A stretch of 19,103 nt of DNA from Pseudobacteriovorax sp. (GCA_050293845.1 JBNKNM010000100.1:1-19103), one strand, 5' to 3'. Counted from the stretch's first letter, positions 1 through 19,103 are shown. Translations and numbers: made by a program. The notes: generated by a model from the sequence alone, not told the origin.

Positions 1-590
1 TCATGAAGCATAGCTGATGGAAATTCCGCAGGAAATGTATTTCTGAATTGTTGAATAATCCATTCTTTATTAGGAGTCGCAGTCACGTTAATTAAAATCA
101 ATTTACGTGACGGAATTTCAATAATTGCGAAAATAAACAGCTGGACACCCTTGCTATCAAAGACCATCGTGAAATCCATCGCCCCATAGCGTTTGTAGCT
201 ATCTAGAACTGAACTCCAATTTGGTGGACAAAACTTAGTTTTTGGCGGTACATAACTGCTCTCTCTAAGAATTTTTAAGACTGTTTTCTTCGAAACCGAG
301 ATACCTAAAATCTTTAACTCATCAGAAATTCGTTGTGCACCCCAAAGCCAGTTACAACGCTTCATCTCAATGACTAGATCGACAACATTTTCGTGATCTG
401 TTGGCCTGCCTTTAGGCTTTTTTGAGCACCAAATGATCTTCAGTCTCCGCTTAAACCGCCGGTAGGTACCAACAATCAAAAGGATTGGATATGGATTTAC
501 AAAGTAATTCCATAGATCCTGCAGCAATTCCCACATAAGCCGCTTGAAATAATTAAATGTCCACCTGATTTTAGTCTGAAATTCTTTCAT
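1..590 (-). mobile_element. DDE integrase-core (rve) transposase, IS481/IS3-like, truncated by the left window edge
   Basis: Manual translation from ATG 590 is open to position 1: ...KPKGRPTDHENVVDLVIEMKRCNWLWGAQRISDELKILGISVSKKTVLKILRE...W...AMDFTMVFDSKGVQLFIFAIIEIPSRKLILINVTATPNKEWIIQQFRN...AMLHD. It shows GRP, the WGxxRIxxEL..VSxxTVxxIL HTH, the first catalytic D (MDF) and LHD(xD). Absent from the ORF track because there is no stop in the window. Confidence 0.88.
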
Positions 591-855: not shown

Positions 856-883
856 TTGACATAAGAATATTATCTGATATTGT
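856..883 (+). promoter_or_regulatory. Putative sigma70 promoter for the cfa-like cassette
   Basis: TTGACA (856-861), 16 nt spacer, TATTGT (878-883) with an extended -10 TG. SD AAGGAG 911-916 precedes ATG 925. Confidence 0.5.
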
Positions 884-924
884 TACTTCGTAACGTATTT
901 TTTGGCTCAAAAGGAGTCTCAAAA

Positions 925-2148
925 ATGTTTACAAGCAAAGTATTAAAAAGTAAACCAATTCCAAATCTTGAACATTTCACTGAAATTATTGATAAGAGAA
1001 TTAGTGACAGCATTCAGGTTCCATTTAGTATCGAGCTGTGGAATGGAAGCGTATATTCATATGGATGTGGAAAGTCTCAGTTTAAAATTCTTATCAAAAA
1101 TAAAACTGGATTAGCTATTCTAAGCAGTCTAGACGAATTGCATATTAGCGAAGCATATGTGAATGAGTTAATTGACTTCGAAGGTAATATATTAAACTTA
1201 ATCGCCTTACGTAAATATCTAAAAGATACTCACAGATTAGTGCGGCTATGGCAAATTGTTATGCCTTTCCTAACCAAGACATTGCGACGAAATCGAAAAG
1301 CTATTGCTGTTCATTATGAGTATGATAATGAGTTCTATTTTTCGTTCTTAGATTCATCACGAAGCTATTCTCATGCGGTATTTACTTTCGACAACGAACC
1401 GCTGGAGGTGGCTCAAAAACGCAAATTGGAATTAGCCATTAAAGCATGTGATTTAAAGCAGGGAGATCGTGTACTAGATGTTGGTGGTGGTTGGGGATCA
1501 TTCGTTGAGCTTGCCGGTAAAAAAGGTATAGAGGTTACTTCGCTGACAATATCAAAAAACTCAGAAATCTACATACGCGAATTGATCGATAGGGAGAAGC
1601 TTCCTTGTCGAATAGAAAATATTGATTTCCTTGCCTATCATGAGAAACATTTGTACGACGCAATTGTTGTTCTTGGTGTTATGGAACATCTACCAGACTA
1701 TCAAACTGTTATTCAGAAATTTGATCGTTTGCTCAAACCAGGCGGACGAGTTTATCTGGACGCGAGCGCATCTTCACGGAAATTTGATAGCTCGACTTTT
1801 GTATCAAAGTATATCTTTCCTGGAAGACATTCATTCTTTTGCCTTCACGATTTTCTTACAAAGGTTGCAAAAGAAAATTTTGAAGTTATCTCGGTTTATA
1901 ATGATAGAAAAAACTATCTTCTCACATGTAAATCCTGGGCAGAAAATCTTGATCGACGACATGATGAGATAGCCAACCGTTGGGGTGAGCGTCTCTATCG
2001 TCTATTTAGAATCTATCTATGGGCATCAGTGTTTGGATTTCAGTCTCAAGATCTCACGGCGTACCGCGTAGTTCTTGAAAAAGCTAGAAGTACTACTCAG
2101 CTCTTGCCGCGAAATTTGGAAACACTGGACTACAAGAGTTTAGCGTAA
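925..2148 (+). CDS. cfa: Cyclopropane-fatty-acyl-phospholipid synthase family class I SAM-dependent methyltransferase
   Basis: Family motifs IAVHYE..NEFY..FLD..SYS.A.F, LEVAQKRK, VLDVGGGWG (SAM binding), GVMEHL, LLKPGG, KYIFPG, NYLLTCKSW, RLFRIYL. Start moved to ATG 925 because of AAGGAG. Exact activity is uncertain (see findings). Confidence 0.85.
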   Translation: MFTSKVLKSKPIPNLEHFTEIIDKRISDSIQVPFSIELWNGSVYSYGCGKSQFKILIKNKTGLAILSSLDELHISEAYVNELIDFEGNILNLIALRKYLKDTHRLVRLWQIVMPFLTKTLRRNRKAIAVHYEYDNEFYFSFLDSSRSYSHAVFTFDNEPLEVAQKRKLELAIKACDLKQGDRVLDVGGGWGSFVELAGKKGIEVTSLTISKNSEIYIRELIDREKLPCRIENIDFLAYHEKHLYDAIVVLGVMEHLPDYQTVIQKFDRLLKPGGRVYLDASASSRKFDSSTFVSKYIFPGRHSFFCLHDFLTKVAKENFEVISVYNDRKNYLLTCKSWAENLDRRHDEIANRWGERLYRLFRIYLWASVFGFQSQDLTAYRVVLEKARSTTQLLPRNLETLDYKSLA

Positions 2149-2173
2149 TTAAAAGTAGAAATAGGTATCGAGT

Positions 2174-3079
2174 ATGGTTGCAGGAGAATATAGTGAGGCT
2201 TTTTCTAAGATACGGCACAAGTCGGCTTTGATCGACGGTGTTCGTATTCACTGGGATATCGTAGGCAAGGAGTCTTCGCTCCCAACAGTTGTTATGTTGC
2301 ATGGTCTGAACGACAGTTCTCTGACTTGGCGTCGGGTTGCTCCTAAAATTGCCAAAGATCGTTTAGTGCTCCTTCCCGATTTACCTGGGCACGGACGATC
2401 GGATCGACCGGATGCTACTTATGAATTGTCGTGGTATGCACATATTATGTCTTTGTGGTTGAGGAATCTGGGGTACTCAGTATTTGATCTAGTTGGGCAT
2501 TCGTTTGGTGGTGGTATCGCTCTGATGATGCTCCTAGAATGTCGTGAGCTTATTAGGAGAATGGTTTTGGTTTCTTCGGGAGGCCTTGGGCGAGAAATTG
2601 CCATGATTCTGCGTTTGGCATCGATTCCATTTGTAGTGGAACATTTAGGACAACCATTCATGAAAGTTGCCACAAAGCTAGCGTTAACACTCGCGCGTGA
2701 TGGTAGGCCCTACGAAGATATCGCACAACTTAGTGCGCTAAGTGGTAAACGAGGATCGGCACGAGCCTTTGCGCGAACGGTCGATGATATTATTAATTGG
2801 CGTGGGCAAAAACACACCTACATCCAGCGAGTTCAGGAAGTTCCTGAACTACCACCCGTCCTGATTATGTGGGGTGCGCTAGACTCCATTATTCCAATTG
2901 CTCACGGTAAGCGCATGGTGAAAAACTTTGAAGGCATTCAATTAAAGATTTTTGAAGATTGCGGTCACTATCTACACTTCAACAAGCCTGAGCTCTTTGT
3001 TAAAACATTGCACAATTTTCTCCAGTCCCCCTATTTGCCTCCAGCTCACCTCAAAACGGCATTAATGTCGAGTCAGTAA
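2174..3079 (+). CDS. Alpha/beta fold hydrolase (Abhydrolase_1-like)
   Basis: MLHG oxyanion motif, DLPGHGRS, nucleophile elbow GHSFGG, acid WGALD, His in CGHY. Starts 25 nt after the cfa-like stop. Confidence 0.92.
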   Translation: MVAGEYSEAFSKIRHKSALIDGVRIHWDIVGKESSLPTVVMLHGLNDSSLTWRRVAPKIAKDRLVLLPDLPGHGRSDRPDATYELSWYAHIMSLWLRNLGYSVFDLVGHSFGGGIALMMLLECRELIRRMVLVSSGGLGREIAMILRLASIPFVVEHLGQPFMKVATKLALTLARDGRPYEDIAQLSALSGKRGSARAFARTVDDIINWRGQKHTYIQRVQEVPELPPVLIMWGALDSIIPIAHGKRMVKNFEGIQLKIFEDCGHYLHFNKPELFVKTLHNFLQSPYLPPAHLKTALMSSQ

Positions 3080-5967: not shown

Positions 5968-6363
5968 CTATCTCGTTTTTAACCAGTGGCGTTTGACAAT
6001 AGTACTGACAAACTTTTTATCAAAGGAGATGTAGTTTTTTAGATGCTCGAATGAGGATTTGGGCTCGTCATATTGCCATGCGATATGAGGAACGATAGTC
6101 GATTCAAAAATGAGGTCATAGTACTTGGCATTTCCTTTCCAAATGCAAGTGCTCCTATGGCCAGCAAGCTTTAAGTTTTTCCACATGATGCAGTCCTTAG
6201 GTAGGTACTTCTGACCCCCAAGATCCACAACACGATTGATAGGGCAAACTGCTAGTAGCAAGTCTCGCCAATAGACATAAAGAAATTTTTTATTAAAAAA
6301 TATCAAAACCCATTCCGAGTCATGCGGAAGCTTCTTACTAAGAGGGATTATTGCCGTACTCAT
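5968..6363 (-). CDS. DUF427 domain protein
   Basis: YLP..C...L....STCIWKGNAKYYDL......AWQYDEP...F..LKNYISF matches the DUF427 signature. Start codon uncertain. Confidence 0.8.
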   Translation of the reverse strand: MSTAIIPLSKKLPHDSEWVLIFFNKKFLYVYWRDLLLAVCPINRVVDLGGQKYLPKDCIMWKNLKLAGHRSTCIWKGNAKYYDLIFESTIVPHIAWQYDEPKSSFEHLKNYISFDKKFVSTIVKRHWLKTR

Positions 6364-6406: not shown

Positions 6407-6539
6407 AGGTTTTTTGATTTTCGAGTTCAATAGGACTTGCGGTACTATGGTATTTATTGATAGGTACGAGAAATAATGCTTTTTTTACCCCTGCTTTACC
6501 TTGTCCTTAGGGGTGGTTATAGAAGAAAGGATTGAGGCT

Positions 6540-9500
6540 GTGTGGGAATTCTGGGTAGATCGTGGGGGGACATTTACTGATATTATAGCAAAAACCCCTG
6601 AAAAAAAGTTAGTAGGCGCTAAAGTCCTTTCAGAGAACCCAGAACTATATTCTGATGCACCCATGTATGGCATTCAAAAGATTCTTAGCAAGCATGGCTT
6701 GAGTATAACTGAAGCAAGGATCAAAGCTATTAAAATGGGTACTACAGTCACTACAAATGCCTTATTGCAACGAACGGGTCTTCCCACTGCTCTTGTGGTG
6801 ACAAAAGGGTTTCGGGATATTTTTGAAATTGGGGATCAAAGTAGATCAGATTTATTTTCATTGAAAATTGTCAAAGAAAAACCCCTCTATCATGTTGTGG
6901 TGGAAGTTGAAGAAAGAATAGCTGCCGATGGAAAGGTCGTTACACCCCTTAATGAATCCATGCTAAGTGAAGAGTTGCAATCTATCTTAGACCAAGGGAT
7001 CTATTCTTGTGCTATAGTCTGCCTTCATGGCTATCGTTACCCGCATCATGAGCAGCGCATTGCAGAGGTTGCTAGAGCATTAGGGTTTAAAGAAGTCGTC
7101 TGTTCCTACATGTCTAGCCCTATGAGACGATTGATCCCCCGAGGAAACACGACGGTTCTGGATGCCTATTTGAATCCTGTGATAAAAAAATATTGGCAGC
7201 TATTTCAGCAGCAGTGGGGTGAGAGTGAAGCTTTTCCGATCCTTTTTATGCAGTCTAATGGAGGCTTGTGTTCTGGTAATCAACTTACAGGTAAGAATAG
7301 TCTGCTTTCAGGGCCAGCAGGAGGTGTCATTGGTGCGGTTAAGTCTCTTGTTAAGTTGAATATTGATAAGATTGTAGCTTTCGACATGGGAGGAACTTCT
7401 ACTGATGTTTGCCACTATGCAGGTATTATTGAGCGTGCCATGGAGCTGCAATTCGGCCAGCTGAATTTACAAACACCGACTATCGCTATTCATACAGTAG
7501 CAGCTGGTGGGGGCTCCCTAGTAAAATTTCATCAAGACCGTTATCAGGTAGGTCCTGAGTCGTCGGGTGCCCATCCAGGACCCGCCTGTTATGGCCAAGG
7601 TGGACCAGCTACTGTAACTGACTGTAATCTCATATTGGGACGTTTGGTGCCGGCAGCGTTCCCCAAAATTTTCGGACCTGATGGTGATAGGGGATTGGAT
7701 ATTCCAGCAGCTAGAGCAGCCTTGGAGTCATGGCAACGCAAAATTAAAGATGACCGATCCCTTGAAGGTGTGGCGGAAGCGTTTTTAAATTTGGCGATCT
7801 TTAATATGGCAAATGCAATCCGTAAGATTACAACTGAAAAGGGCGTCGATTTAGTCGATTACACCTTGTGTTCTTTAGGTAGTGCCAGTGGGCAGGTCGT
7901 ATGTAGAATCAGTGACGAACTGGGTATCAAAAAAATCATCATTCACCCCATGGCAGGCTTGCTTTCAGCTTTTGGTATCGGGAATGCTGATAAGATCCTA
8001 GCTTTTTCCGAATCCATCAACAGGCCTTTGCGAGATATTCAAGACAATGAACTGCATAGTCTTGTTGAAAAATTGAAAGAAAAATATTGCCAGCTATACA
8101 AGCTGGATCAACATTCGGCATGGTCCATTAAGTGTTATCTTAAAAGTAGCGACTCACAGGCTAAGATTCCGATAGAGCTTGATCAGATCGAAAGTATGAA
8201 AATGGCTTTTGAAAAGCAATTTCAGATGATGTTTGGGTTTATACCTGAAAGAAATAGCATTCAGCTAGACCTTATGGAACTTGAATATCGCGAAAATAAT
8301 GCAACTATGGATTATGAGTGCCAAGAACTTGAAGCTATTGCTACTTTTCCTAAGACACAGAAAATCTTCTGTCGTGGTCAATATCTGCTTGCCAATATTA
8401 AGCAACGAAACGAAATTGGTTCGCAGCGTATTTCTGGTCCGCTCATCATTTTGGATCAAACCGGTACCAATATAGTAGACCCTGGATGGACGGCTCACTC
8501 TGATGCAGCGGGAAATCTTATTTTGTCGAAAAACTGCGATGAAAAAATCTGGTCTACCGATCGAGATGATCGGGAAAAGGTGGACTCCTATAAGATAGAG
8601 CTATTTGGGAGATTATTTCAGCAGATATCAGAGCGTATGGGGGTCGTGTTACAAAGAACCAGCAGATCGGTAAATATCAGAGAACGGCTTGATTTTTCAT
8701 GTGCCATCTTTGATCAAAGGGGAAATCTAGTGGCAAATGCGCCCCATATTCCAGTGCATTTGGGATCTATGAGCAGTAGTGTAAAAAGCCTTCTTGAAAA
8801 GAAAAAATATGACATGACGCCCGGTGATTCCTTTATACATAACGATCCCTATAGTGGTGGTACCCATCTCCCCGACCTCACTGTGATTACCCCAGTGTTT
8901 TATAAAAACAGAGATCGTCCCTTGTTTTTTATCGCATCGCGGGGACATCATGCCGATATTGGCGGTATCTCACCAGGATCTATGCCTGCTTTTTCCAAGT
9001 CTATTGATGAGGAAGGTATCATGTTTGGCCATGACCTTATTGTGCGACAAGGGGAGTTTCGACAGGCTTTCTTAGAGAAAAAATTGCGTCGTGCTACCTA
9101 CCCAGCAAGACAGCCGGAAACTAATCTGGCCGATATCAAAGCACAGCTTGCTGCCAATCAGAAAGGTATTCAAGATCTATTCATGTCCTGTGATCGTTAT
9201 GGCTTGGAGCAGGTATTAAAATATATGCAGGGAATTCAAGATAATGCAGCAAAAGCGATACTTTCTTGTTACGACTCCATTCGTATCGGTAAGTCAAAAA
9301 TTATTGCTGATAACGGTATCAGAATTTGTTGCTCAGTGAACAAAAACCCAAAAACCAGAAAATTGGTTTTTGATTTTACGGGCAGTTCATGGCAACAGCA
9401 GAATAATTTTAATGCACCCTATGCTGTGGTAAAGGCAGCGATACTGTACTGTATCCGCTGCTTATTGGCAGAAAATATCCCTTTAAATGATGGCCTACTT

Positions 9501-10109
9501 AATAATATAGATATTATTATTCCTCCCAATAGCTGTCTTGCCCCTCAGTATCCCGCAGCAGTTGTTGCAGGTAATGTGGAATTGTCCCAATTGGTTGTCG
9601 ATGCTATTTTGGAGGCGACACAGCAATTGGCTAACAGCCAGGGTACTATGAATAATTTGACCTTTGGTAACAAGTATTTTCAGTACTATGAAACAATTTG
9701 TGGAGGTATGGGCGCTGGAGCAGGCTTTTCTGGAACCAGTACCATCCAAAGTCATATGACAAATTCTCGCCTTACGGATCCTGAAGTTATCGAAAGTCAG
9801 TTCCCTATTCGGGTAGAAACGTTTAAAATTAGGCGGGGTAGTGGTGGTAAAGGAGCATATGCAGGTGGGGATGGAGCAATCAGGGTTTTACGGTTTTTAA
9901 CCCCCATGCAAGTAAGTATGATAGGAAATCGCAGGACTTCGCGGCCACAGGGAATTGGTGGGGGAGGACCTGCAAAACCTGGGGAAAATATATTGATGAC
10001 TGAACCTAAAGGTAAAAAAATGTTACTCAGTTGCTTTTTAGAGAACGTGAACACTAATGATATGTTAGTGATAAAAACTCCAGGTGGAGGAGCTTATGGA
10101 AAGGAATGA
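6540..10109 (+). CDS. oplA: Fused hydantoinase A/B, ATP-dependent 5-oxoprolinase (OPLAH type)
   Basis: [126 protein letters not shown]. Likely start GTG 6540 after AAGGA. Confidence 0.94.
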
Positions 10110-10660: not shown

Positions 10661-11497
10661 GTGCTAAGACTTGCTATTCTGGGCTTCTTTTTCTTATATT
10701 TCCCTTTTATCTTGGCGAAAGCTGATAAAAAACCGCAGCGGATCGTTACAACATTTGTAGGTGCCGATGTCATCGTTTATGAGCTGCTCCGCGGCGAGCC
10801 GGAGCGCTTGCTTGCTGTGTCTCCCTTGGGTCTCGATAAAGCTTACTCCCCCATTTATAATGAGCTAAGTCAAAATGTAAAAACCTTTGGCTGGGAATTA
10901 GAAAGTTTGCTGCTACTAAAACCAGATTTGGTCATAGCGGCGAAATATACTCGTGCTGAATGGTTAGCTATGTTGGGACAGGCAAAAGTTAATACCCTCA
11001 AACTGGAAAACTTTTCTTCACTAGCGGACATCAAGGAAAATATTCTCAAAATTGGTCAAGCCATTCAACGACTTCCTCAAGCACAAGCCATAGTTGCAGT
11101 TATGGATAAAAAATTGCTTAGCTTGCAAAAAAATTGCCCATTAAAGGGTAAAAAAATTCTAAACTATAATCCTGAAGGTACGCTTTTCGGCAAAGGAACA
11201 ACCTTTGACGATCTGTTTACCCATGTGGGGGTCCGAAACTTAGCTGGTGAACTAGGTATTAAAGGTTGGTCTCAAGTTCCCCGGGAGCAATTAGCTAGTA
11301 TGATGCCTGATTACGTTGTTGCCACTGGGGAAGAAAGTCATCGCATAAAGCTGCTTGGTAAACTACGTTCTAGTTTAGGGTGGAAACAGTTGCCCGCTAT
11401 AAAACGCGGACAATTGATCCTGATACCAGGACGCTTTTTATCCTCTGTAACCCATTGGTCTTTGCGAGCTTTGGAGATCGCTTGTGGCCAAATATAG
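10661..11497 (+). CDS. ABC transporter substrate-binding protein, BtuF/FepB-like (cobalamin or iron chelate)
   Basis: Signal peptide, PQRIVT, ESLLLLKPDLVIA, GKGTTFDDL...GVRNLA, W.QV..EQL...PDYVV, WKQLPAIKRG. Confidence 0.87.
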   Translation: MLRLAILGFFFLYFPFILAKADKKPQRIVTTFVGADVIVYELLRGEPERLLAVSPLGLDKAYSPIYNELSQNVKTFGWELESLLLLKPDLVIAAKYTRAEWLAMLGQAKVNTLKLENFSSLADIKENILKIGQAIQRLPQAQAIVAVMDKKLLSLQKNCPLKGKKILNYNPEGTLFGKGTTFDDLFTHVGVRNLAGELGIKGWSQVPREQLASMMPDYVVATGEESHRIKLLGKLRSSLGWKQLPAIKRGQLILIPGRFLSSVTHWSLRALEIACGQI

Positions 11498-12482
11498 TCG
11501 AACCCACCTAGGAGTTGTGCTCAGCCTGGTGGTGTTTTTAGCGACATTGATCATAGGGATTTCCTGGGGAGCTAGTGGCTTTTTCCTCGATGGGATTGGA
11601 GAACAGAACTCTCAGCAGCGACTCATACTTTTCACCATAAGAGTTCCCAGGGTATTAGTTGCAGGAATCTGTGGAGCATCCTTAGCTCTCGCTGGAGTGG
11701 TAAGCCAGGGGCTATTTCGCAACCCCTTAGCAGGGCCCACCATTTTAGGGACTACAGGGGGGGCCAACATGCTTGTTGTCCTATTCATGTTCCTCGGGAT
11801 AACTCAAGACCACTGGTTTTATCCTCCTATAATAGCTTTTCTGGGGGCCGGATTTTCTACGGTAGTTGTTATAAGACTAGCTTTGTCGCGCGTTTTCCTG
11901 CGTGGAGAACGGTTGCTATTGGCAGGGTTCGCTCTGAATAGCTTGTTTGCAGCTGTAACGACTTTTATTCTTTCCCTTAGTCTAAATGAGTATGGTCTTT
12001 CCCAATCTATCGTTTACTGGCTATTAGGTGGGTGTAATGGCAAGGGGTGGCACCATGTATTCATGGGATTACCTTGGTTTAGCTTGGGAATTTTCCTGTC
12101 TTTCTTTCTGGCGAAGCAGTTGAATGTGCTCAATTTAGGCGAGGATTTGGCAAGTTCATTGAGTATAAACCTCAAGCGCTTACGGGTACTCTCGATCTTA
12201 GCTATGGCGATTCTCGTTGCTGGTGCCGTAGCCCTATGTGGTGGCATTGGTTTCATTGGACTTATTGTTCCTCATTTTACGCGGCTATACTCAGGAGCGG
12301 AAAATCGTCGCCTTATGGTTCTATCCCTATTCAATGGTGCTTCCTTACTGATAGCTGCGGACACAGTTGCAAGAACGGTTTTATTACCGCAGGAGCTTCA
12401 GGTTGGTGCCATTATTTCTCTGATCGGAGCCCCACTGTTTCTTATTCTAATGGCTGTAAGAGCACGCAATCAGGAGAGTTGA
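11484..12482 (+). CDS. FecCD/BtuC-family ABC permease
   Basis: IRVPRVLVA, GASLALAG..SQGLFRNPLA.P.ILG, WLLG, LNVLNLGEDLASSL, GGIGFIGLIVPH, ADTVAR, IGAPLF. Overlaps the previous stop. Confidence 0.93.
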   Translation: MAKYSRTHLGVVLSLVVFLATLIIGISWGASGFFLDGIGEQNSQQRLILFTIRVPRVLVAGICGASLALAGVVSQGLFRNPLAGPTILGTTGGANMLVVLFMFLGITQDHWFYPPIIAFLGAGFSTVVVIRLALSRVFLRGERLLLAGFALNSLFAAVTTFILSLSLNEYGLSQSIVYWLLGGCNGKGWHHVFMGLPWFSLGIFLSFFLAKQLNVLNLGEDLASSLSINLKRLRVLSILAMAILVAGAVALCGGIGFIGLIVPHFTRLYSGAENRRLMVLSLFNGASLLIAADTVARTVLLPQELQVGAIISLIGAPLFLILMAVRARNQES

Positions 12483-12483
12483 G

Positions 12484-13188
12484 GTGTTTCATATTGATTC
12501 CATGAAGGTTATAAAGAATAAGCAGCCTATATTAAAGATCGATCACCTCGATTTCCATAAGCCAGAGCTAAACTTCGTGATTGGCCCCAATGGAGCTGGA
12601 AAAACGACCTTATTGAGGGTCTTGGCAGGCCTGGAGCCATACGAAGGGCATATTTTCTTTCGCCAGCAGGAATGCCGGAAGGTCAATAAACGGCAATTTG
12701 CAACAGAAGTTGCTTGGATGCCATCTGCAAGCTACCCTAGCTTTGACTTAAGGGTGCAGGACCTGCTGCAATTGGGTCGTTATCCTTGGCATCAGGGTTT
12801 TCCCCAGGAGAAAGACAGACTGCAGATTGAAAAGGCCTTGTCCACCTTACAAATAGAGCACTTATCCTTACGGCTGGTCTCATCCCTAAGTTCAGGAGAG
12901 TACCAGAAAGTGCAAATTGCCAGGGCTCTGGCGGGAGAGGCTCGCTGTTTAATCCTTGATGAGCCCTGCTCTCACCTTGATATTGGCGCACGCTTGGAGT
13001 TCTGCCAAATATTGAAAGAGCTGGGTATGATGACGATTATGTCAAGCCATGACCATTTTCTGGCTCATAAGTTTGCTGACCGGTGTATCTGTATTAAGGC
13101 CGGGACGGTTTTTAATATCATAGCAGGAAAACCAGAGCTTACCGATATCGCAGAATTATTTTCAGTTAACCCAGCATACTTAACTTAG
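12484..13188 (+). CDS. ABC transporter ATP-binding protein, FepC/BtuD-like
   Basis: Walker A GPNGAGKTT, LGRYPW, signature LSSGEYQ, Walker B LILDEP, H-loop SSHD. Confidence 0.92.
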   Translation: MFHIDSMKVIKNKQPILKIDHLDFHKPELNFVIGPNGAGKTTLLRVLAGLEPYEGHIFFRQQECRKVNKRQFATEVAWMPSASYPSFDLRVQDLLQLGRYPWHQGFPQEKDRLQIEKALSTLQIEHLSLRLVSSLSSGEYQKVQIARALAGEARCLILDEPCSHLDIGARLEFCQILKELGMMTIMSSHDHFLAHKFADRCICIKAGTVFNIIAGKPELTDIAELFSVNPAYLT

Positions 13189-14224
13189 ACCTTGGTTTGT
13201 ACCATTGTTCGATGGCTTTTTTAGTAAGGTAATTTTTTTCACCGCTACAGAGATGAGACCATTGATGCTCGCTGTTGACGGCTTTTAACAAAAAATCGAA
13301 CAGAGTAAGGTGACGACGCTGGATGCGTTTTAGTCTATGGGGCATAATAGGGTTGAAAATACCGAAGGGTGATACCAGCTGACGGGGATTTTTACGAATC
13401 CAATGCCAAGAGCCCATTTCCAAACAAAGGGGGAGAAAAGTCATCTTTTGATCTACATTTTTTTTGCGAAACCTATAGTACATATAATCCCATAAATCTC
13501 CATGGGCCATGTACTGTAAATTTTGGGGTTCAATTGTGTAAACATGCTGAGGGTAGCTGTAGTCCAGGAGGCGTTTAAGGGCTAGCACCTTGTAGGCTTC
13601 AGGAAAAACAGAACGCGAATGCGCATAGGGAAACCAAATGCGATCGACTAGGCCAAAGCCTGAGTGTACATCCAATATAACAGTGGTATTTGCTTGGAAA
13701 GTATTTTGCTCAATAAACTGACACAGAATCTCAGATTCTTTTTCCATGTGATTCTGATCATAACCTCGGTACCAGGGGATCTTGGGACTAATGCGGTGAC
13801 CTCCGATGATTGGCATTACTGCAGATTTTGCTTCGATAGGTGCATTTCTCATAAGATCTACACCATGTCCATTAGAGCGAGAGCCGCGATACATCCCGAC
13901 TGGATTTGCCAAAGGATAGAACAATAGCTGGCAATGCTCCATCAAGGACTTTACCCCTGGGTCCCACTTTAAAAGTCGGATCATAGTATTCAGATAGGAT
14001 GTAACAACATGGGTTCCTATTTTTTCAAGACCATGAATACCTCCTATGATCACCAGCTTTGGAACATTGGGATTGTTATTTCCAAATTTGAAAGAAAGGA
14101 TCGGGAACTGCTTGCGCTTATAGTTAATAAGTCCTTCTTCAACGCATTCTCCTACTCCCTCTAAGTTTTGGGCACATCTAAAAATATCGTTGAGTTCACC
14201 AAAGAAAGATAGTTGCGATGTCAA
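13166..14224 (-). CDS. M14 family zinc carboxypeptidase-like protein
   Basis: GGIHGLE (HxxE), PLANPVG, RSNGHGVDLMRN, LDVHSG (third ligand), CLEMG (catalytic Glu). TTG start 10 nt after the olsB stop. No signal peptide. Confidence 0.85.
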   Translation of the reverse strand: MTSQLSFFGELNDIFRCAQNLEGVGECVEEGLINYKRKQFPILSFKFGNNNPNVPKLVIIGGIHGLEKIGTHVVTSYLNTMIRLLKWDPGVKSLMEHCQLLFYPLANPVGMYRGSRSNGHGVDLMRNAPIEAKSAVMPIIGGHRISPKIPWYRGYDQNHMEKESEILCQFIEQNTFQANTTVILDVHSGFGLVDRIWFPYAHSRSVFPEAYKVLALKRLLDYSYPQHVYTIEPQNLQYMAHGDLWDYMYYRFRKKNVDQKMTFLPLCLEMGSWHWIRKNPRQLVSPFGIFNPIMPHRLKRIQRRHLTLFDFLLKAVNSEHQWSHLCSGEKNYLTKKAIEQWYKPRSKLSMLG

Positions 14225-14234
14225 AGGATTATCC

Positions 14235-15065
14235 TTATTGAATTTGACATCGGATATATTTTTTATGGTAGGAGCTGGATAACTGCCTGAAATCTAAGAC
14301 TGTGAAAAAATCGATACACCCAAATCGTAAGTCGATAGCGGGTGGTCCAAATATCTTGGCACCAGCTTTGAGATACCCCCACAATAAAGGAGGAATGAGA
14401 TCATTATTTCCTATCATATCGATGTCGAAGTTTAGCTCTAGAGTATCTATTGTAATAAAATGGTAGTGATTTTTAGGAGTAATGTCAAACTCCTGGGAAG
14501 TGACTCCGATGTCAATGAGGTGTCTATAAATTTTTACTATTTCTTTTAAATGCAGCGACTGAACGCTGGAGCAACCAAACAGATAGCGGGCTCCACTTCG
14601 GACCATATATTCGGCTAAACCACGCCATAATAGATGTAAGGCTATGGAAGTGCGAGCTTCTTTTTTAACGCAAGCGCGGCTTAGCTCCAGCTTTTGTTCC
14701 GGTATCTTGAAGAAATCTTTTGCTTCAAACTCGGTAGCTGAATAGAACTTATCAGAAAACGCCGAGCATATAAGCCTATAGCTGGCGATGACCCTACCGT
14801 GTTTTTTAATAATTAGAAAATCTGCGTGAGCATCAAACTGATCGCTATCGGATTCATCTTGTAGGTTTTCTGCTGCAAACTCACCTAAAAAAACTTCCTT
14901 ACGAAGTTCCATAACATCTTGAAATTCTTTCGAAGAATCGGCGATTTTAATCGTATAGTGTCCTTGGATGATGGTAAAAAATATTTTTGCATGCCAAGTG
15001 ACGGGAATCTTTATGGGTTGTGGGGATACTGTGTTGATGGATACCAAAGGTTGCAGTGCGCACAT
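14235..15065 (-). CDS. olsB: OlsB-like GNAT N-acyltransferase (lyso-ornithine lipid synthase)
   Basis: LRKEVF..E, DSDQFD, IASYRL, FYSATEF, LELSRACV, LLWRGL, RYLFGCSS, IPPLLWGYLKAGA, PAIDLRFGCIDF. GGAG lies 7 nt before ATG 15065. The longer 15236 start would overlap the divergent gene. Confidence 0.85.
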   Translation of the reverse strand: MCALQPLVSINTVSPQPIKIPVTWHAKIFFTIIQGHYTIKIADSSKEFQDVMELRKEVFLGEFAAENLQDESDSDQFDAHADFLIIKKHGRVIASYRLICSAFSDKFYSATEFEAKDFFKIPEQKLELSRACVKKEARTSIALHLLWRGLAEYMVRSGARYLFGCSSVQSLHLKEIVKIYRHLIDIGVTSQEFDITPKNHYHFITIDTLELNFDIDMIGNNDLIPPLLWGYLKAGAKIFGPPAIDLRFGCIDFFTVLDFRQLSSSYHKKYIRCQIQ

Positions 15066-15227
15066 GGTCAGGCTCCTATAAAGTTTAGGGCTTGTTTGCC
15101 TTAGAAAGTATGGTTTAGTTTTTTGAAGCCTATTTAAAGCAAACGTTAACTGTGAATAAAGTTGCTGACCCCACCGTAGATTTGCAGTTAAGCTTGTGAC
15201 ATATGATCTTGTGTGGGGGTAAATGTT

Positions 15228-16058
15228 GTGAAGCAATTGCGTGCGAGCTATCGAATGGTAATACTTATTTTGATTATGGGGAGTCTCTTTGGAACTAGTT
15301 TGCTCATTGTACTATTTGCGAAAGCAAGTATTCTGCGAAGTTTCTATAAAATACACATGGAAGGAGAAATTGCAAAAAATATGCAACAGCACTTCCGGCT
15401 GCTTTTACGACTTATGAATGTAAAATGGCAGGTTTCTGAGGATCTGCAAGAGCCTATCATATCAAAAGGAAGTCTTTTTCTAAGCAATCATATTAGTTAT
15501 TTAGATATCATTTTACTTTCCGCTGCTTATCCTATGGCTTTCGTTGCCAAAAAGGAAGTAAGTACGTGGCTCGGATTGGGAACCCTCGTGAGGATGATGA
15601 ATACGATTTTTGTAGTTCGCGACAGCATAGCTAGTCGAGTTCAATGTATTAGAAGTTTGCAACGAAATATTAAAAGTACTAACTACTGCGTTTTTCCCGA
15701 AGGTACAACAACTTTATCAAAAGTACCAAAAATAAAGAATTGGAAGGCGGGTAATCTTTTTGTTGCAAAGATTTCTAAGACTCGAGTCATTGCGACGAGC
15801 GTGTGTTATCAAGATCATAATGATCTTTATTGGATAGATGACATGACCTTGCTACCTCATCTTTGGAAACTTCTACAGAAAAAACGAATCGTGGCCGGGA
15901 TACAGCTGAAGGAGTTTAGAAGTCGTGATTTACTTACAGATAATATACGAAAAACGGCGCGAAAAGTGTGCAGTGAAGTATCCTATTTATGTCAGGATAC
16001 AGAGTTTCTTTTTGCTCAGCCGTTAAAGATGATCCCGACTTGGGAGTTATCAAAATAA
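15228..16058 (+). CDS. olsA: PlsC/OlsA-family lysolipid O-acyltransferase
   Basis: SNHISYLD (HX4D), FVAKKEV..W..LG, IFVVRD, VFPEGTT, WIDDM.LLPHLW, N-terminal TM segment. Divergent from olsB. Start could be GTG 15213, GTG 15228 or ATG 15254-region; the olsA symbol rests on gene context. Confidence 0.82.
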   Translation: MKQLRASYRMVILILIMGSLFGTSLLIVLFAKASILRSFYKIHMEGEIAKNMQQHFRLLLRLMNVKWQVSEDLQEPIISKGSLFLSNHISYLDIILLSAAYPMAFVAKKEVSTWLGLGTLVRMMNTIFVVRDSIASRVQCIRSLQRNIKSTNYCVFPEGTTTLSKVPKIKNWKAGNLFVAKISKTRVIATSVCYQDHNDLYWIDDMTLLPHLWKLLQKKRIVAGIQLKEFRSRDLLTDNIRKTARKVCSEVSYLCQDTEFLFAQPLKMIPTWELSK

Positions 16059-16084
16059 CATTTCAAATAAAATTATAGCAGAGT

Positions 16085-16147
16085 TTGCTGTTTTGCAATA
16101 ATGCTATCAACTTAGCTTAAGTTGCTGTATTGAATAATGCTATTATT
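16085..16147. repeat. Imperfect ~22-bp direct repeat flanking a 17-bp palindrome
   Basis: TTGCTGTTTTGCAATAATGCTAT (16085-16107) and TTGCTGTATTGAATAATGCTAT (16122-16143), CAACTTA-GCT-TAAGTTG (16108-16124), AATAAT-GCT-ATTATT (16133-16147). Confidence 0.6.
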
Positions 16148-16232
16148 AATTACTCAAGGTTATTAGCGGAACAATCGATACTGTTAAAGCAGTTTTTTTA
16201 AAGTTATGCCCCATAGCCGTAAGGGTTGATTT

Positions 16233-19103
16233 ATGGCCTTACCAAATCGAAAAATATTGGTGACTTTCCTCGCTTTGTGCTGGAACCTTTCGCTACTGGG
16301 GCAGGATGAAACTATGCAATTTGATAAATTGCCGCCTATCTTAAACTATGTTCCTGAAAATGAATTGATGTCATTAATAGAGGCTGAATTCAATCTTCAG
16401 CATGTAGGGGAAAATATACCATCCAACGGCCGTAGGGCAGCGAAACAATATAGAGAAGTAAAAAAAAATTACAAAGGTTTAATTGCTAGAGCAGACTCTG
16501 CTGAACTTAGCACATTTCATAAATTTTTTGAGGATGCTCTACAAGTATATGCTTACTACATATCTACCGATTATCTGGGGAAAGCCAAAGCAAGAATTAA
16601 TCAATTGCGAGAGATTATTTATAAGCTTGGTGAATGGGTTTACTTAAAGGAAACTGATGCTGATAAACGGCTGAATGTGCAAATTCTGTACCTAGCCCAT
16701 GGTTTAGGCCAACCAGCATACTTAGCTGATTCCATCTCAAAAATAATTGAAAAAGATAAAAATGCTCCAGAAAATTTTGTAAACCCTATTAAACTGTTAC
16801 TTTATTTCAATTTGAATAGATCCCCCAGTACTGCAGGATCTGCAAAAATGATTTTAGATCAAGTTGCAGGAAAACTTACAACACGTCAACAAGTTATTGT
16901 TGATTTGATAGCCTTGCAGAATCGAACTGTTGGTGAGGAGGATGTCGGTCAAACGGATATTTCACCCGCACAAAATCGTAATATACTGCTAGATATCTCT
17001 AGAAAAGCGCAAAGAATTAAAGAGTTGGGTCTGCGATGGCGCGTGAACAGTACAATTTTGGATCTGTGGCTTAGAATGAATAAAAGTATAGACTGGCGCA
17101 ACGCGCCATTAATCGAGATTGAAAGTAAGTCAGGTATAGTTATCACTCCGATCCTTGAGCGCATTGTTATCGAAGAAATCGCTAGTGGTAATTTAAGCAA
17201 AGGGATCAAAACTTATAAGGCTCTTTCAAAAGCATTTCGTAGCCAAATCATTTCCATTCAACTAGATAATAGATATTTGTCTTTGTCCATAAAATTTGCA
17301 AAAAAAACAAGTGATTATGAATTTCTTGACCGTATCTACTATGAGCTTGTTACTAGGTATCAAAAACCCAATAGCCGTTTTAATAAACCGGCAAGAAAAG
17401 CCTATGTAGCATTTTTCTTAGGCTACAATCAATACATCCAAAGCCTGTTGGAGCAGGGCTTAAGTGGGAAGTTGGACACCAAAGCAAAAATTAGGATTGC
17501 TAATATTGCTAAGAAGTTTACAAGCACCTTTGCTAGTGCACGCACGCAAATTCTAAAAAATAAAGAATTACTGGCTAAACTTTATGAAAATTTAAAGAAA
17601 TATAAGGAAGCGGTAACTGAGTACTTGGACTTAACTAAAGAAGATCCTTTGAATTTCTATGAAAAGGCAAGTCATCCCCAGAAAATTTTAGCATCATGGC
17701 CGGAATCTCCTCCTTGGGGAAAAATTGGTAGAGGCAGCAAGGCAGAGCGACTGCATTTGATCAAAATTTATGAAGCTCTGGTTAGTGCCCAAAAAGATAA
17801 AGATGAAAAGGTGAATTGGGTGGACTTGGCTCATCTAGGCTTGTTATATGGAGTTACGGGACAAATTACTAAAGCCGAAGATCTTTGGGCTCCAGAAATT
17901 AAAAATGCTTCACCGTCCCCTCACGTTAATGGGGCTAGCGGTATATTACTAGCCTTCTACTATCGACAAAAGAAATGGGACCAGTTTATTAACCTTGCCA
18001 GAACTGCTGAGAATAAGAAAATCTTACCCACTTTGGAACAGCAGGTTCTGGATATGAAAAAATTCTACAAAATTGCATTGGTACAGAGGAGCCAAGAATC
18101 CATAAGGGAATCAAAATGGAAGGCCGCTATAGCGGATTATGAGGAAGTGGTGTCACGCTATCCAAAGGAACCGAATCGTCCTGCTTTGCTTGCAGAAATC
18201 GGTAGACTATACGTTAAATCTAAGGACATCCTGGGGGGAATGACAGCGATCAAAAAACTGCTTACTGAATATCCAAACAGCGCCCAAACAAAAAAATCAC
18301 TGCTGGAAGCTGGTGCATGGGGAAGCGGCTCCAAAGATGCTAAGGTGCTTGCTGAAGCAGCAAATTTTTATAAATGGTATTTGGAAAACTTTACTAATGA
18401 TCCCAATGTTCCTAAGGCGAGATTTGAATGCGCCAAGATTTACATAATGCTTAAGCAGTACCCACAGGCTTCTGGATACCTAAAGGATCACGCCTTAGAT
18501 CGTAGAGTGAATGTCCCAGATCGTGTCCGAGCAGCCTTGATGCATATTAATTTGGAAGATAAGTATGGTGAGAGAGAGCGAGCTATAGCTTCTTTGGTCC
18601 CTGTTATACGCATGGTGAAACCCAATTTTGGGGATGATCTCAACATATCGGCTCATGTTATACTGGCCAGGGTTGCAACTGAAAAGGTCAATATCCAGCA
18701 AATGAAGATAGAAGAAAAAATCTTAGCACCCCATATCAGCCGAAGATTGGATGTGGCTGATGCTTTAGGCTATCTTCGCCTATCCATGGCAAATCACTTT
18801 GAATACGAGATACCATTCCCGAATGAGCCTCATGGTATTGATACTTTCAGGCCAACAATAGATAAGATATTTAAGGCCTTTAGAATTATTCAGGATAGTT
18901 ACGAAAGAATTTGTTTAGCACGTGAAAATCGTTATTGTGAGCCTGCTTACGGCCGTTTGAAACAGTTTTCTCAGGATGCCTTGGATGCGATTGCAGCCGT
19001 GGAACTTGTTGGTAAAATACAACCCAAAATGCTCAAAGTTCTAAAGGAATATCAGCAGAATATTCTCCAAGAGGTACGGGAAGAAAAACAGAAATTTGAT
19101 CGC
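16233..19103 (+). CDS. Large exported tetratricopeptide-repeat protein (at least 957 aa), truncated by the right window edge
   Basis: ATG 16233 gives MALPNRKILVTFLALCWNLSLLG... and the frame stays open to 19103. TPR-like segments: LAKLYENLKKYKEAVTEY, WKAAIADYEEVVSRYPKEP, KKLLTEYPNS, AANFYKWYLENFTNDPNVPKARFECAKIY. Missing from the ORF track because there is no stop. Confidence 0.88.
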   Translation, partial: MALPNRKILVTFLALCWNLSLLGQDETMQFDKLPPILNYVPENELMSLIEAEFNLQHVGENIPSNGRRAAKQYREVKKNYKGLIARADSAELSTFHKFFEDALQVYAYYISTDYLGKAKARINQLREIIYKLGEWVYLKETDADKRLNVQILYLAHGLGQPAYLADSISKIIEKDKNAPENFVNPIKLLLYFNLNRSPSTAGSAKMILDQVAGKLTTRQQVIVDLIALQNRTVGEEDVGQTDISPAQNRNILLDISRKAQRIKELGLRWRVNSTILDLWLRMNKSIDWRNAPLIEIESKSGIVITPILERIVIEEIASGNLSKGIKTYKALSKAFRSQIISIQLDNRYLSLSIKFAKKTSDYEFLDRIYYELVTRYQKPNSRFNKPARKAYVAFFLGYNQYIQSLLEQGLSGKLDTKAKIRIANIAKKFTSTFASARTQILKNKELLAKLYENLKKYKEAVTEYLDLTKEDPLNFYEKASHPQKILASWPESPPWGKIGRGSKAERLHLIKIYEALVSAQKDKDEKVNWVDLAHLGLLYGVTGQITKAEDLWAPEIKNASPSPHVNGASGILLAFYYRQKKWDQFINLARTAENKKILPTLEQQVLDMKKFYKIALVQRSQESIRESKWKAAIADYEEVVSRYPKEPNRPALLAEIGRLYVKSKDILGGMTAIKKLLTEYPNSAQTKKSLLEAGAWGSGSKDAKVLAEAANFYKWYLENFTNDPNVPKARFECAKIYIMLKQYPQASGYLKDHALDRRVNVPDRVRAALMHINLEDKYGERERAIASLVPVIRMVKPNFGDDLNISAHVILARVATEKVNIQQMKIEEKILAPHISRRLDVADALGYLRLSMANHFEYEIPFPNEPHGIDTFRPTIDKIFKAFRIIQDSYERICLARENRYCEPAYGRLKQFSQDALDAIAAVELVGKIQPKMLKVLKEYQQNILQEVREEKQKFDR

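Follow-up and report, generated by a model that had tools for sequence, protein, structure and literature searches.

Ornithine lipids are made by three known routes and altered by several modifying enzymes, and bacteria exchange phospholipids for aminolipids, or the reverse, according to phosphate supply and stress; a route for breakdown or remodelling must therefore exist. Hydrolysis of N-acyl amino acids is known from enzymes with an M14-like fold (aspartoacylase, aminoacylase 3 and succinylglutamate desuccinylase), and operons that pair synthesis with breakdown are known for polyhydroxyalkanoate (PHA), cyanophycin and glycogen. On the synthetic side, the product of OlsB is an N-(3-hydroxyacyl) amino acid whose α-carboxylate is free, and OlsA esterifies its 3-hydroxyl, as set out in the main text of a 2026 ornithine-lipid review (PMC12971839). 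That main text does not use degrad-, amidase, turnover, peptidase or deacyl-, and names no enzyme for removal or recycling; the 2025 OlsH/OlsI paper (PMC12493201) does not use peptidase, M14, amidohydrolase or hydrolysis. By title and abstract, the full-text literature, in a collection that covers few subscription journals, offered nothing linking ornithine lipids or olsB to M14, carboxypeptidase or amidohydrolase, nothing joining N-acyl amino acids, zinc carboxypeptidase and bacteria, and nothing relevant on DUF2817; where olsB and M14 do meet in one text, M14 denotes something other than a peptidase family, as in Streptomyces M145 or in unrelated clinical work. Here we analyse a 19,103-bp stretch of bacterial DNA (the window), which is the whole of contig C100 in an assembly of 6.68 Mb that is 96% complete. 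It carries a gene for a protein of the M14 zinc carboxypeptidase family next to genes for OlsB-like and OlsA-like acyltransferases. The M14 protein is best described as one of an M14-fold family of putative amidohydrolases that, judging from gene neighbourhoods, has been drawn into aminolipid gene clusters, in most cases together with an esterase. An earlier examination of the window, the sequence-only reading, had reported knowing of no described role for such an M14 protein in this pathway, and the sources above agree with it within their coverage.

In the window, the M14 gene follows the olsB-like gene on the minus strand and the olsA-like gene points away from both (Table 1). Read on the minus strand, the olsB/M14 junction is ...CAA TAA GGATAATCCT TTG ACA..., with exactly 10 nt between stop and start, and an AAGGA Shine-Dalgarno-like word overlaps the olsB-like stop codon ahead of the M14 start. 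Downstream, the ATPase gene of a convergent FecCD/BtuC-type ABC transporter ends at 13188 and overlaps the 3′ end of M14 by 23 nt, which makes M14 the last gene of a two-gene olsB-M14 unit. A promoter and terminator scan of 12900-16400 returned 13 promoter-like sites against 8.5 ± 2.8 expected, which is not above background. The open reading frames (ORFs) that the sequence-only reading had placed at 13166-16058 match our calls, and its placing of M14 10 nt behind olsB is borne out by these calls and the minus-strand reading. Its divergent olsB and olsA also stand; the spacer it gave as about 160 nt comes to 147-189 nt, depending on the start codons chosen.

Both neighbours resemble the enzymes of the OlsB/OlsA pathway over their full length. 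The OlsB-like protein matches Pfam Acetyltransf_5 (PF13444) at 71.3 bits (cut-off 22.4), and its top NCBIfam matches are the OlsB models NF052555 and NF052554, whose full profiles are covered; the local OlsB hidden Markov model (HMM) match spans 14247-15026. The OlsA-like protein matches Pfam Acyltransferase (PF01553) at 57.3 bits (cut-off 23), has the OlsA models NF052552 and NF052553 as its top NCBIfam matches, and carries, as read from its translation, an HX4D motif (NHISYLD) and an N-terminal membrane helix. Unlike the described enzymes, both score below the equivalog cut-offs, at 96.4 and 92.5 bits for OlsB (cut-offs 320 and 350) and 78.1 and 71.1 bits for OlsA (cut-offs 300), and their genes are divergent rather than an olsBA operon. 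The M14-linked OlsB proteins of 14 other loci, at 100-184 bits, likewise fall under the OlsB cut-offs.

The association of M14 with these genes recurs across the class. Among 95 genomes of the window's order tabulated for M14 and OlsB, 62 encode M14 and 67 an OlsB-like protein; 60 have both, two have M14 only, seven OlsB only and 26 neither. Completeness is 53% and 81% for the two genomes with M14 only, and in the 81% one the M14 gene lies at a contig end. The M14 gene with 5 kb on either side was taken for 60 loci, from 59 of the 61 other M14-positive genomes, and scored with local HMMs; G061 and G049, with M14 at a contig start, were left out. Of these loci, 54 carry OlsB at most 5 kb from M14 (55 of 61 when the window is counted), and OlsA is present in 39 of the 60. 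The six loci lacking OlsB comprise one cut at a contig end, one on a 1.6-kb contig, one with OlsB 35 kb away and three, all from one family, that have only M14 and an alpha/beta-hydrolase (ABH) gene. The M14 loci of family f18, which belongs to another order of the class, have both OlsB and OlsA within 3 kb in 14 of 14 cases, in still other gene arrangements. The co-occurrence of M14 with olsB and olsA, which the sequence-only reading had proposed as a check, is thus positive in the window's class. Within the window's order, family f6 alone (genomes G022-G024, loci L135-L137) keeps an M14-ABH pair with no olsB or olsA nearby and offers a natural contrast group; OlsB is found on other contigs in G022 and G023.

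At least nine arrangements of these genes were seen (< marks a gene on the opposite strand). The window's family has <olsA olsB-M14, and the others are olsB-olsA-M14; M14-olsB-olsA; olsB-ABH <M14, with olsA beyond M14 on either strand; olsB-M14; olsB-olsA-M14-ABH; olsB-M14-ABH-olsA; olsA-M14 <olsB; and M14 <olsB <olsA. Because the olsB-M14 adjacency recurs across two orders, it is far above chance, and because proximity is kept despite rearrangement, these comparisons point to selection, and not to synteny passed on by descent, as what keeps M14 near the ols genes. A FastTree tree of 130 distinct M14 proteins points the same way. In its Bdellovibrionota clade, 56 of 74 rows are OlsB-linked; the 56 rows of its Pseudomonadota clade comprise 45 with ABH only, eight with OlsB linkage and three with neither. 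The linkage state changes at least 16 times on the tree, 11 of these changes being forced by well-supported branches, and the eight OlsB-linked Pseudomonadota loci occupy seven separate positions with six gene arrangements, which suggests repeated recruitment. Taken over the class, the linkage favours the view that the M14 enzyme works in the aminolipid pathway.

These patterns bear directly on a reading in which M14 is a carboxypeptidase for peptides or muropeptides (like MpaA or otherwise) that has no lipid role and sits beside olsB through inherited synteny. Its Pfam family is indeed that of zinc carboxypeptidases, and the protein has a weak match to the MpaA model (murein tripeptide amidase, NF007897) and a profile E of 1.3e-4 to 5hxd. 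The MpaA match reaches 18.5 bits against a cut-off of 157, no cell-wall genes are conserved nearby, and linkage through at least nine gene orders and two bacterial orders, repeated in Pseudomonadota, is unlike passive synteny. We therefore regard a muropeptide role as quite improbable.

Beyond the window's lineage, M14 usually has ABH as its immediate downstream neighbour, and ABH is the commonest partner in the family. We surveyed the best 80 of at least 574 genome loci encoding an M14 relative, scoring gene presence by HMM matches on stop-to-stop frames. Of the 80, 63 carry an ABH gene (about 250 aa), nearly always directly downstream of M14 and often overlapping it, and 52 loci have M14-ABH only. 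In 21 of the 80, OlsB is no more than 6 kb away; these include one weak 66-bit match and one contig-end fragment. Clustering of neighbouring ORFs over the same loci found no other family in more than 8 of 80, and no conserved transporter or regulator. The solved structures nearest to the ABH profile are an intracellular polyhydroxybutyrate (PHB) depolymerase (7.8e-14), the monoacylglycerol lipase ABHD6 (2.2e-12) and a lipase (2.6e-12). All four genes (olsA, olsB, M14 and ABH) cluster together at L044, L046 and L062 in Burkholderiales and at L103, L106, L107 and L132 in the window's order; in the window's own family no ABH gene adjoins M14. The coupling of M14 to ols genes claimed by the sequence-only reading thus holds in the window's class, and what that reading missed was ABH.

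An alpha/beta fold already works in the ornithine-lipid pathway, in that OlsI of the OlsH/OlsI pathway, an O-acyltransferase with this fold, acts on lyso-ornithine lipid (PMC12493201). Unlike ABH, OlsI is an acyltransferase partnered with a GH3-like enzyme and not with M14. The ABH partners match the OlsI model weakly, at 16.6-34.5 bits (cut-off 385), and other alpha/beta families do equally well or better.

The M14 protein matches Pfam Peptidase_M14 (PF00246) at 65.4 bits (cut-off 21.6) and is thereby a member of that family; DUF2817 and AstE/AspA appear below threshold, AstE_AspA_cat (PF24827) at 16.7 bits (cut-off 25). There are 4499 family matches at E ≤ 0.001, named at source just M14, DUF2817 or hypothetical, and the protein atlas returned only automatically named M14/DUF2817 clusters with no functional lead. 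The nearest named homologues, at 63-64% identity, are from Pseudobacteriovorax and Oligoflexus, and judged by these names the host is an Oligoflexia-type member of Bdellovibrionota. Across 19 aligned family members with 44-63% identity to the window's protein, H64, E67, D123, M125, R126, H187, Y238 and E269 are invariant. In the HMMER alignment, H64, E67 and H187 fall on the HxxE and H zinc ligands of carboxypeptidase A4 (CPA4), Y238 on Y248 of carboxypeptidase A (CPA) and W245 on specificity position 255; the HxxE motif is present in 129 of 130 family members. E269 lies in a predicted beta-strand (262-271) outside the HMMER-aligned range, and would be the equivalent of CPA E270.

The motif DLMRN, at residues 123-127, is found in 124 of 130 distinct family members and DIMRN in a further five, which marks it within this set as a signature of the whole family and not a local mutation. 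The carboxylate-binding Arg is kept (R126), and the Asn of the Asn144-Arg145 pair is replaced by Met (M125) in 129 of 130, so that the pair is incomplete. By inspection, the N-terminus is acidic and has no hydrophobic run, and no signal peptide was seen, no predictor having been run. The sequence-only reading was right that the zinc ligands are intact and that a signal peptide is missing, the latter on this inspection. It was also right that DLMRN stands in place of DLNRN; as a family trait (DxMRN in 129 of 130), the substitution is not peculiar to this locus.

An AlphaFold model of the protein (pLDDT 85, pTM 0.88) returns CPA4 and the carboxypeptidases T (CPT) and B (CPB) in Foldseek at E 3e-14 to 1e-11, with probability 1.00, TMq 0.60-0.66 and 14-18% identity. 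By sequence the protein is far from all solved structures, with a single-sequence E of 0.009 and a profile E of 2.5e-9 (CPA4). Carboxypeptidases A, B and T (M14A) are thus its best structural and profile matches and share its HxxE...H site and the equivalents of Arg145 and Tyr248. Apart from its low identity to them, the window's protein differs in having no pro-domain and no visible signal peptide, Met for Asn144, Trp at position 255 and added C-terminal helices. These helices (295-342 in the model) belong to a basic extension of about 90 residues after the catalytic domain that carries the invariant R297, R300, R303, R304 and H305; as a speculation, it might contact the membrane. A search for fused M14 forms among proteins of 617-2000 aa found none at E ≤ 1e-20, which is weak evidence. 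The AstE-AspA family offers the closest chemical precedent for our proposal, as carboxypeptidase-fold zinc enzymes whose substrate is one N-acylated amino acid, its α-carboxylate free, from which they remove the acyl group. Its known substrates carry short acyl groups (acetyl, succinyl) and not lipid chains, and it has neither the DxMRN signature nor the basic helical extension.

The analysis shows the gene arrangement, the fold, the catalytic residues and the conserved linkage; the substrate of M14, the direction of its reaction and its physiological role we infer as follows. The substrate would be the product of OlsB, a lyso-aminolipid whose α-carboxylate is free, built on ornithine, as N-(3-hydroxyacyl)-ornithine, or on a similar amino acid. 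M14 active sites bind a terminal carboxylate and cut the amide on its amino side; on a single N-acylated residue, M14-type cleavage is an aspartoacylase-type reaction. The lyso-aminolipid would thus be split into a 3-hydroxy fatty acid and the amino acid, undoing the OlsB step, and the lipase/esterase-like ABH would take off the ester-linked second chain, undoing the OlsA step. All four genes would then make up one build-and-break module, serving turnover, homeostasis (removal of the detergent-like lyso-lipid) or acyl-chain remodelling of ornithine-lipid-type lipids. Co-transcription of M14 with ols genes is no contradiction, because operons for both synthesis and breakdown exist for PHA, cyanophycin and glycogen. 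The PHA synthase and depolymerase, the cyanophycin synthetase and cyanophycinase, and the glycogen glg operon likewise place builder and hydrolase side by side; unlike the olsB/olsA-M14/ABH genes they handle storage compounds rather than membrane lipids, and there is no sequence relation.

We give an even chance to the proposal that M14 is a cytosolic zinc-dependent N-α-acyl-amino-acid (lyso-aminolipid) amidohydrolase that reverses the OlsB step, with ABH reversing the OlsA step. The more specific possibility that M14 and ABH are the first enzymes dedicated to the N- and O-deacylation, respectively, of acyloxyacyl aminolipids, running a Lands-like cycle of deacylation and reacylation with OlsB and OlsA, falls somewhat short of that. 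The sequence-only reading had suggested an amino-lipid amidase or head-group remodelling step; a role in the pathway is now supported by linkage, and the amidase chemistry is what the M14 fold, the intact catalytic residues and the geometry of the substrate would predict.

Several observations weigh against this proposal. Genomes within the class are related, and raw counts overstate their independence. In classical M14 enzymes the Asn of the Asn-Arg pair helps bind the substrate carboxylate, and it is Met throughout this family. The sub-cut-off scores of the OlsB proteins (96-184 bits) may mean that their product is not plain lyso-ornithine lipid. The window's genome has no good ABH copy, its best scoring 109 bits against 250-350 for linked copies. 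This 109-bit ABH-like gene, on contig C43, was considered as a partner and rejected; its neighbours are an adenine deaminase gene and unassigned ORFs, and none is a lipid gene. A degradative enzyme in a biosynthetic operon would also run a futile cycle unless regulated, a difficulty that is sharpest in the olsB-M14-only clusters of one genus.

Burkholderiales provide a further counterweight. In an evenly drawn sample of 151 genomes, with OlsB called at E ≤ 1e-20, the M14 gene is present in 16 and OlsB in 99. OlsB is linked to M14 in one of the 16 (G204, about 1 kb apart), and no OlsB was found at that threshold in three (G115, G238, G247). With OlsB in 13 of 16 M14-positive and 86 of 135 M14-negative genomes, there is no clear enrichment. 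Because these carriers are mostly unlinked and three lack OlsB, the M14 family, on this sample, cannot everywhere depend on an adjacent, or even present, OlsB, and in a few genomes M14 may act on another substrate or on lipids from another route. In five further M14 carriers, an OlsB- or OlsF-like gene is present at another place in the genome (5/5).

It is here that a different function for M14-ABH has to be weighed, namely general catabolism of N-acyl amino acids or related amphiphiles of outside origin, in which case clustering with olsBA would reflect chemical kinship or co-regulation and not turnover of the cell's own lipid. Such a pair could work on prey or environmental aminolipids, or on signals, with ABH opening an N-acyl-homoserine lactone and M14 cleaving the resulting N-acyl-homoserine, which shares the free-carboxylate geometry; alpha/beta-fold lactonases and esterases are known. 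That M14-ABH is the commonest arrangement, standing alone in 52 of 80 loci, and is found in Burkholderiales with OlsB distant or not found, fits this function. The function agrees less with the window's class, where M14 is linked to olsB/olsA even when ABH is missing, with proteins that look cytosolic, and with neighbourhoods in which no transporter or regulator is conserved beside the pair and other families reach at most 8 of 80 loci. On balance, we consider a catabolic pair unlikely.

The co-transcription of M14 with biosynthetic genes in several orders (olsB-M14, olsA-M14, olsB-olsA-M14) could instead mean that M14 itself is biosynthetic, either maturing the head group by trimming a C-terminal residue off an N-acyl dipeptide or blocked precursor, or proofreading wrong N-acyl amino acids. 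OlsB-like proteins that score under the equivalog cut-offs (96-184 versus 320/350 bits) would suit an unusual product of this kind. A biosynthetic M14 leaves the M14-ABH pairs far from olsB unexplained, no ligase for a second residue was seen in the clusters, and OlsB and OlsA alone suffice for ornithine lipid in the systems described in the main text of PMC12971839. We hold this role to be distinctly unlikely.

The genome's arginine genes raise one more candidate function, in which M14 would be an N-acetylornithine deacetylase feeding free ornithine to OlsB. The M14 protein has a weak match, over residues 38-126 only, to the Shewanella-type N-acetylornithine deacetylase model (NF052223). An argC-argD-argF'-argB cluster is present in its own genome; the argF' product scores 303 bits as N-acetylornithine carbamoyltransferase (cut-off 288), and neither ArgJ nor ArgE was found above cut-off in the 96%-complete assembly. 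With arginine apparently made through N-acetylornithine carbamoyltransferase and no ArgJ or ArgE above cut-off, free ornithine is perhaps not a biosynthetic intermediate. Set against this, the deacetylase match is 21.9 bits for a cut-off of 400, and two arginase-family genes could supply ornithine. In family f16, M14 is present in 20 of 22 genomes and in f3 in 7 of 16, and the carbamoyltransferase in 0 of 22 and 0 of 16. All five Pseudomonadota carriers tested have ArgJ (5/5), and the esterase partner would be left unexplained. An ornithine-supplying deacetylase is therefore very improbable. The arginine cluster lies on contig C19 of the same assembly, at about 37250-41260 (locus L141:4251-8259); with no ArgJ and no ArgE-type deacetylase above cut-off, the acetylcitrulline deacetylase step has no assigned gene in this genome.

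The remaining features of the window are listed with the locus in Table 1. A tail-to-tail arrangement of the transporter ATPase and M14 genes is also seen in a genome of the same genus (L092). The methyltransferase and hydrolase genes near the contig start form a second membrane-lipid-modifying pair on this contig; the hydrolase scores just 24 bits with the model of the M14-partner ABH. The partial ORF with transposase-type helix-turn-helix matches, at the contig edge, may explain the assembly break.

Table 1. Genes and spacers of the aminolipid locus, and other features of the window, with positions counted from its first nucleotide.
Feature	Position	Strand	Remarks
M14 gene	13166-14224	-	352 aa, TTG start, apparently cytosolic; DUF2817-like family with DxMRN signature
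Spacer, olsB-like stop to M14 start	14225-14234	-	10 nt, minus-strand reading
OlsB-family N-acyltransferase gene (lyso-aminolipid synthase)	14235-15065	-	276 aa, likely ATG 15065; ORF stays open up to TTG 15236 (14235-15236)
Divergent intergenic region, olsB-like/olsA-like	15066-15254		147-189 nt by start codons chosen
OlsA-family lyso-aminolipid O-acyltransferase gene (PlsC type)	15213/15255-16058	+	Pfam Acyltransferase; candidate starts GTG 15213, GTG 15228, ATG 15255
Partial ORF	3-590	-	Runs off contig start; weak HTH_21/HTH_32 (transposase-type helix-turn-helix) matches
Cyclopropane-fatty-acyl-phospholipid-synthase-like methyltransferase (CMAS) and alpha/beta hydrolase genes	880-3079	+	CMAS 167 bits, with DUF7884; 25 nt between the genes; hydrolase 301 aa
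DUF427 gene	5968-6363	-	Opposite strand to, and upstream of, the fused hydantoinase A/B gene
Fused hydantoinase A/B gene	6501-10109	+	1202 aa; 5-oxoprolinase or caprolactamase-like
FecCD/BtuC-type ABC importer	10661-13188	+	Complete: binding protein, permease, ATPase
TPR-repeat protein gene	16233-19103	+	>957 aa, runs off contig; directly downstream of the olsA-like gene; signal-peptide-like N-terminus, weak YbgF/BamD-type matches

The M14 family is a good candidate for the enzyme that dismantles or remodels ornithine-lipid-type lipids, and a large uncharacterised M14/DUF2817-like family (4499 matches) gains from this analysis a concrete substrate hypothesis and a candidate esterase partner. 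If the proposal is right, thousands of proteins now called hypothetical or carboxypeptidase would receive an annotation, aminolipid turnover would be opened to study, and enzymes for making or cleaving N-acyl amino acid surfactants would become available. The module is widespread, extending over Oligoflexia/Bdellovibrionota and Burkholderiales, and its proposed cycle would let bacteria remodel or recycle phosphorus-free membrane lipids.

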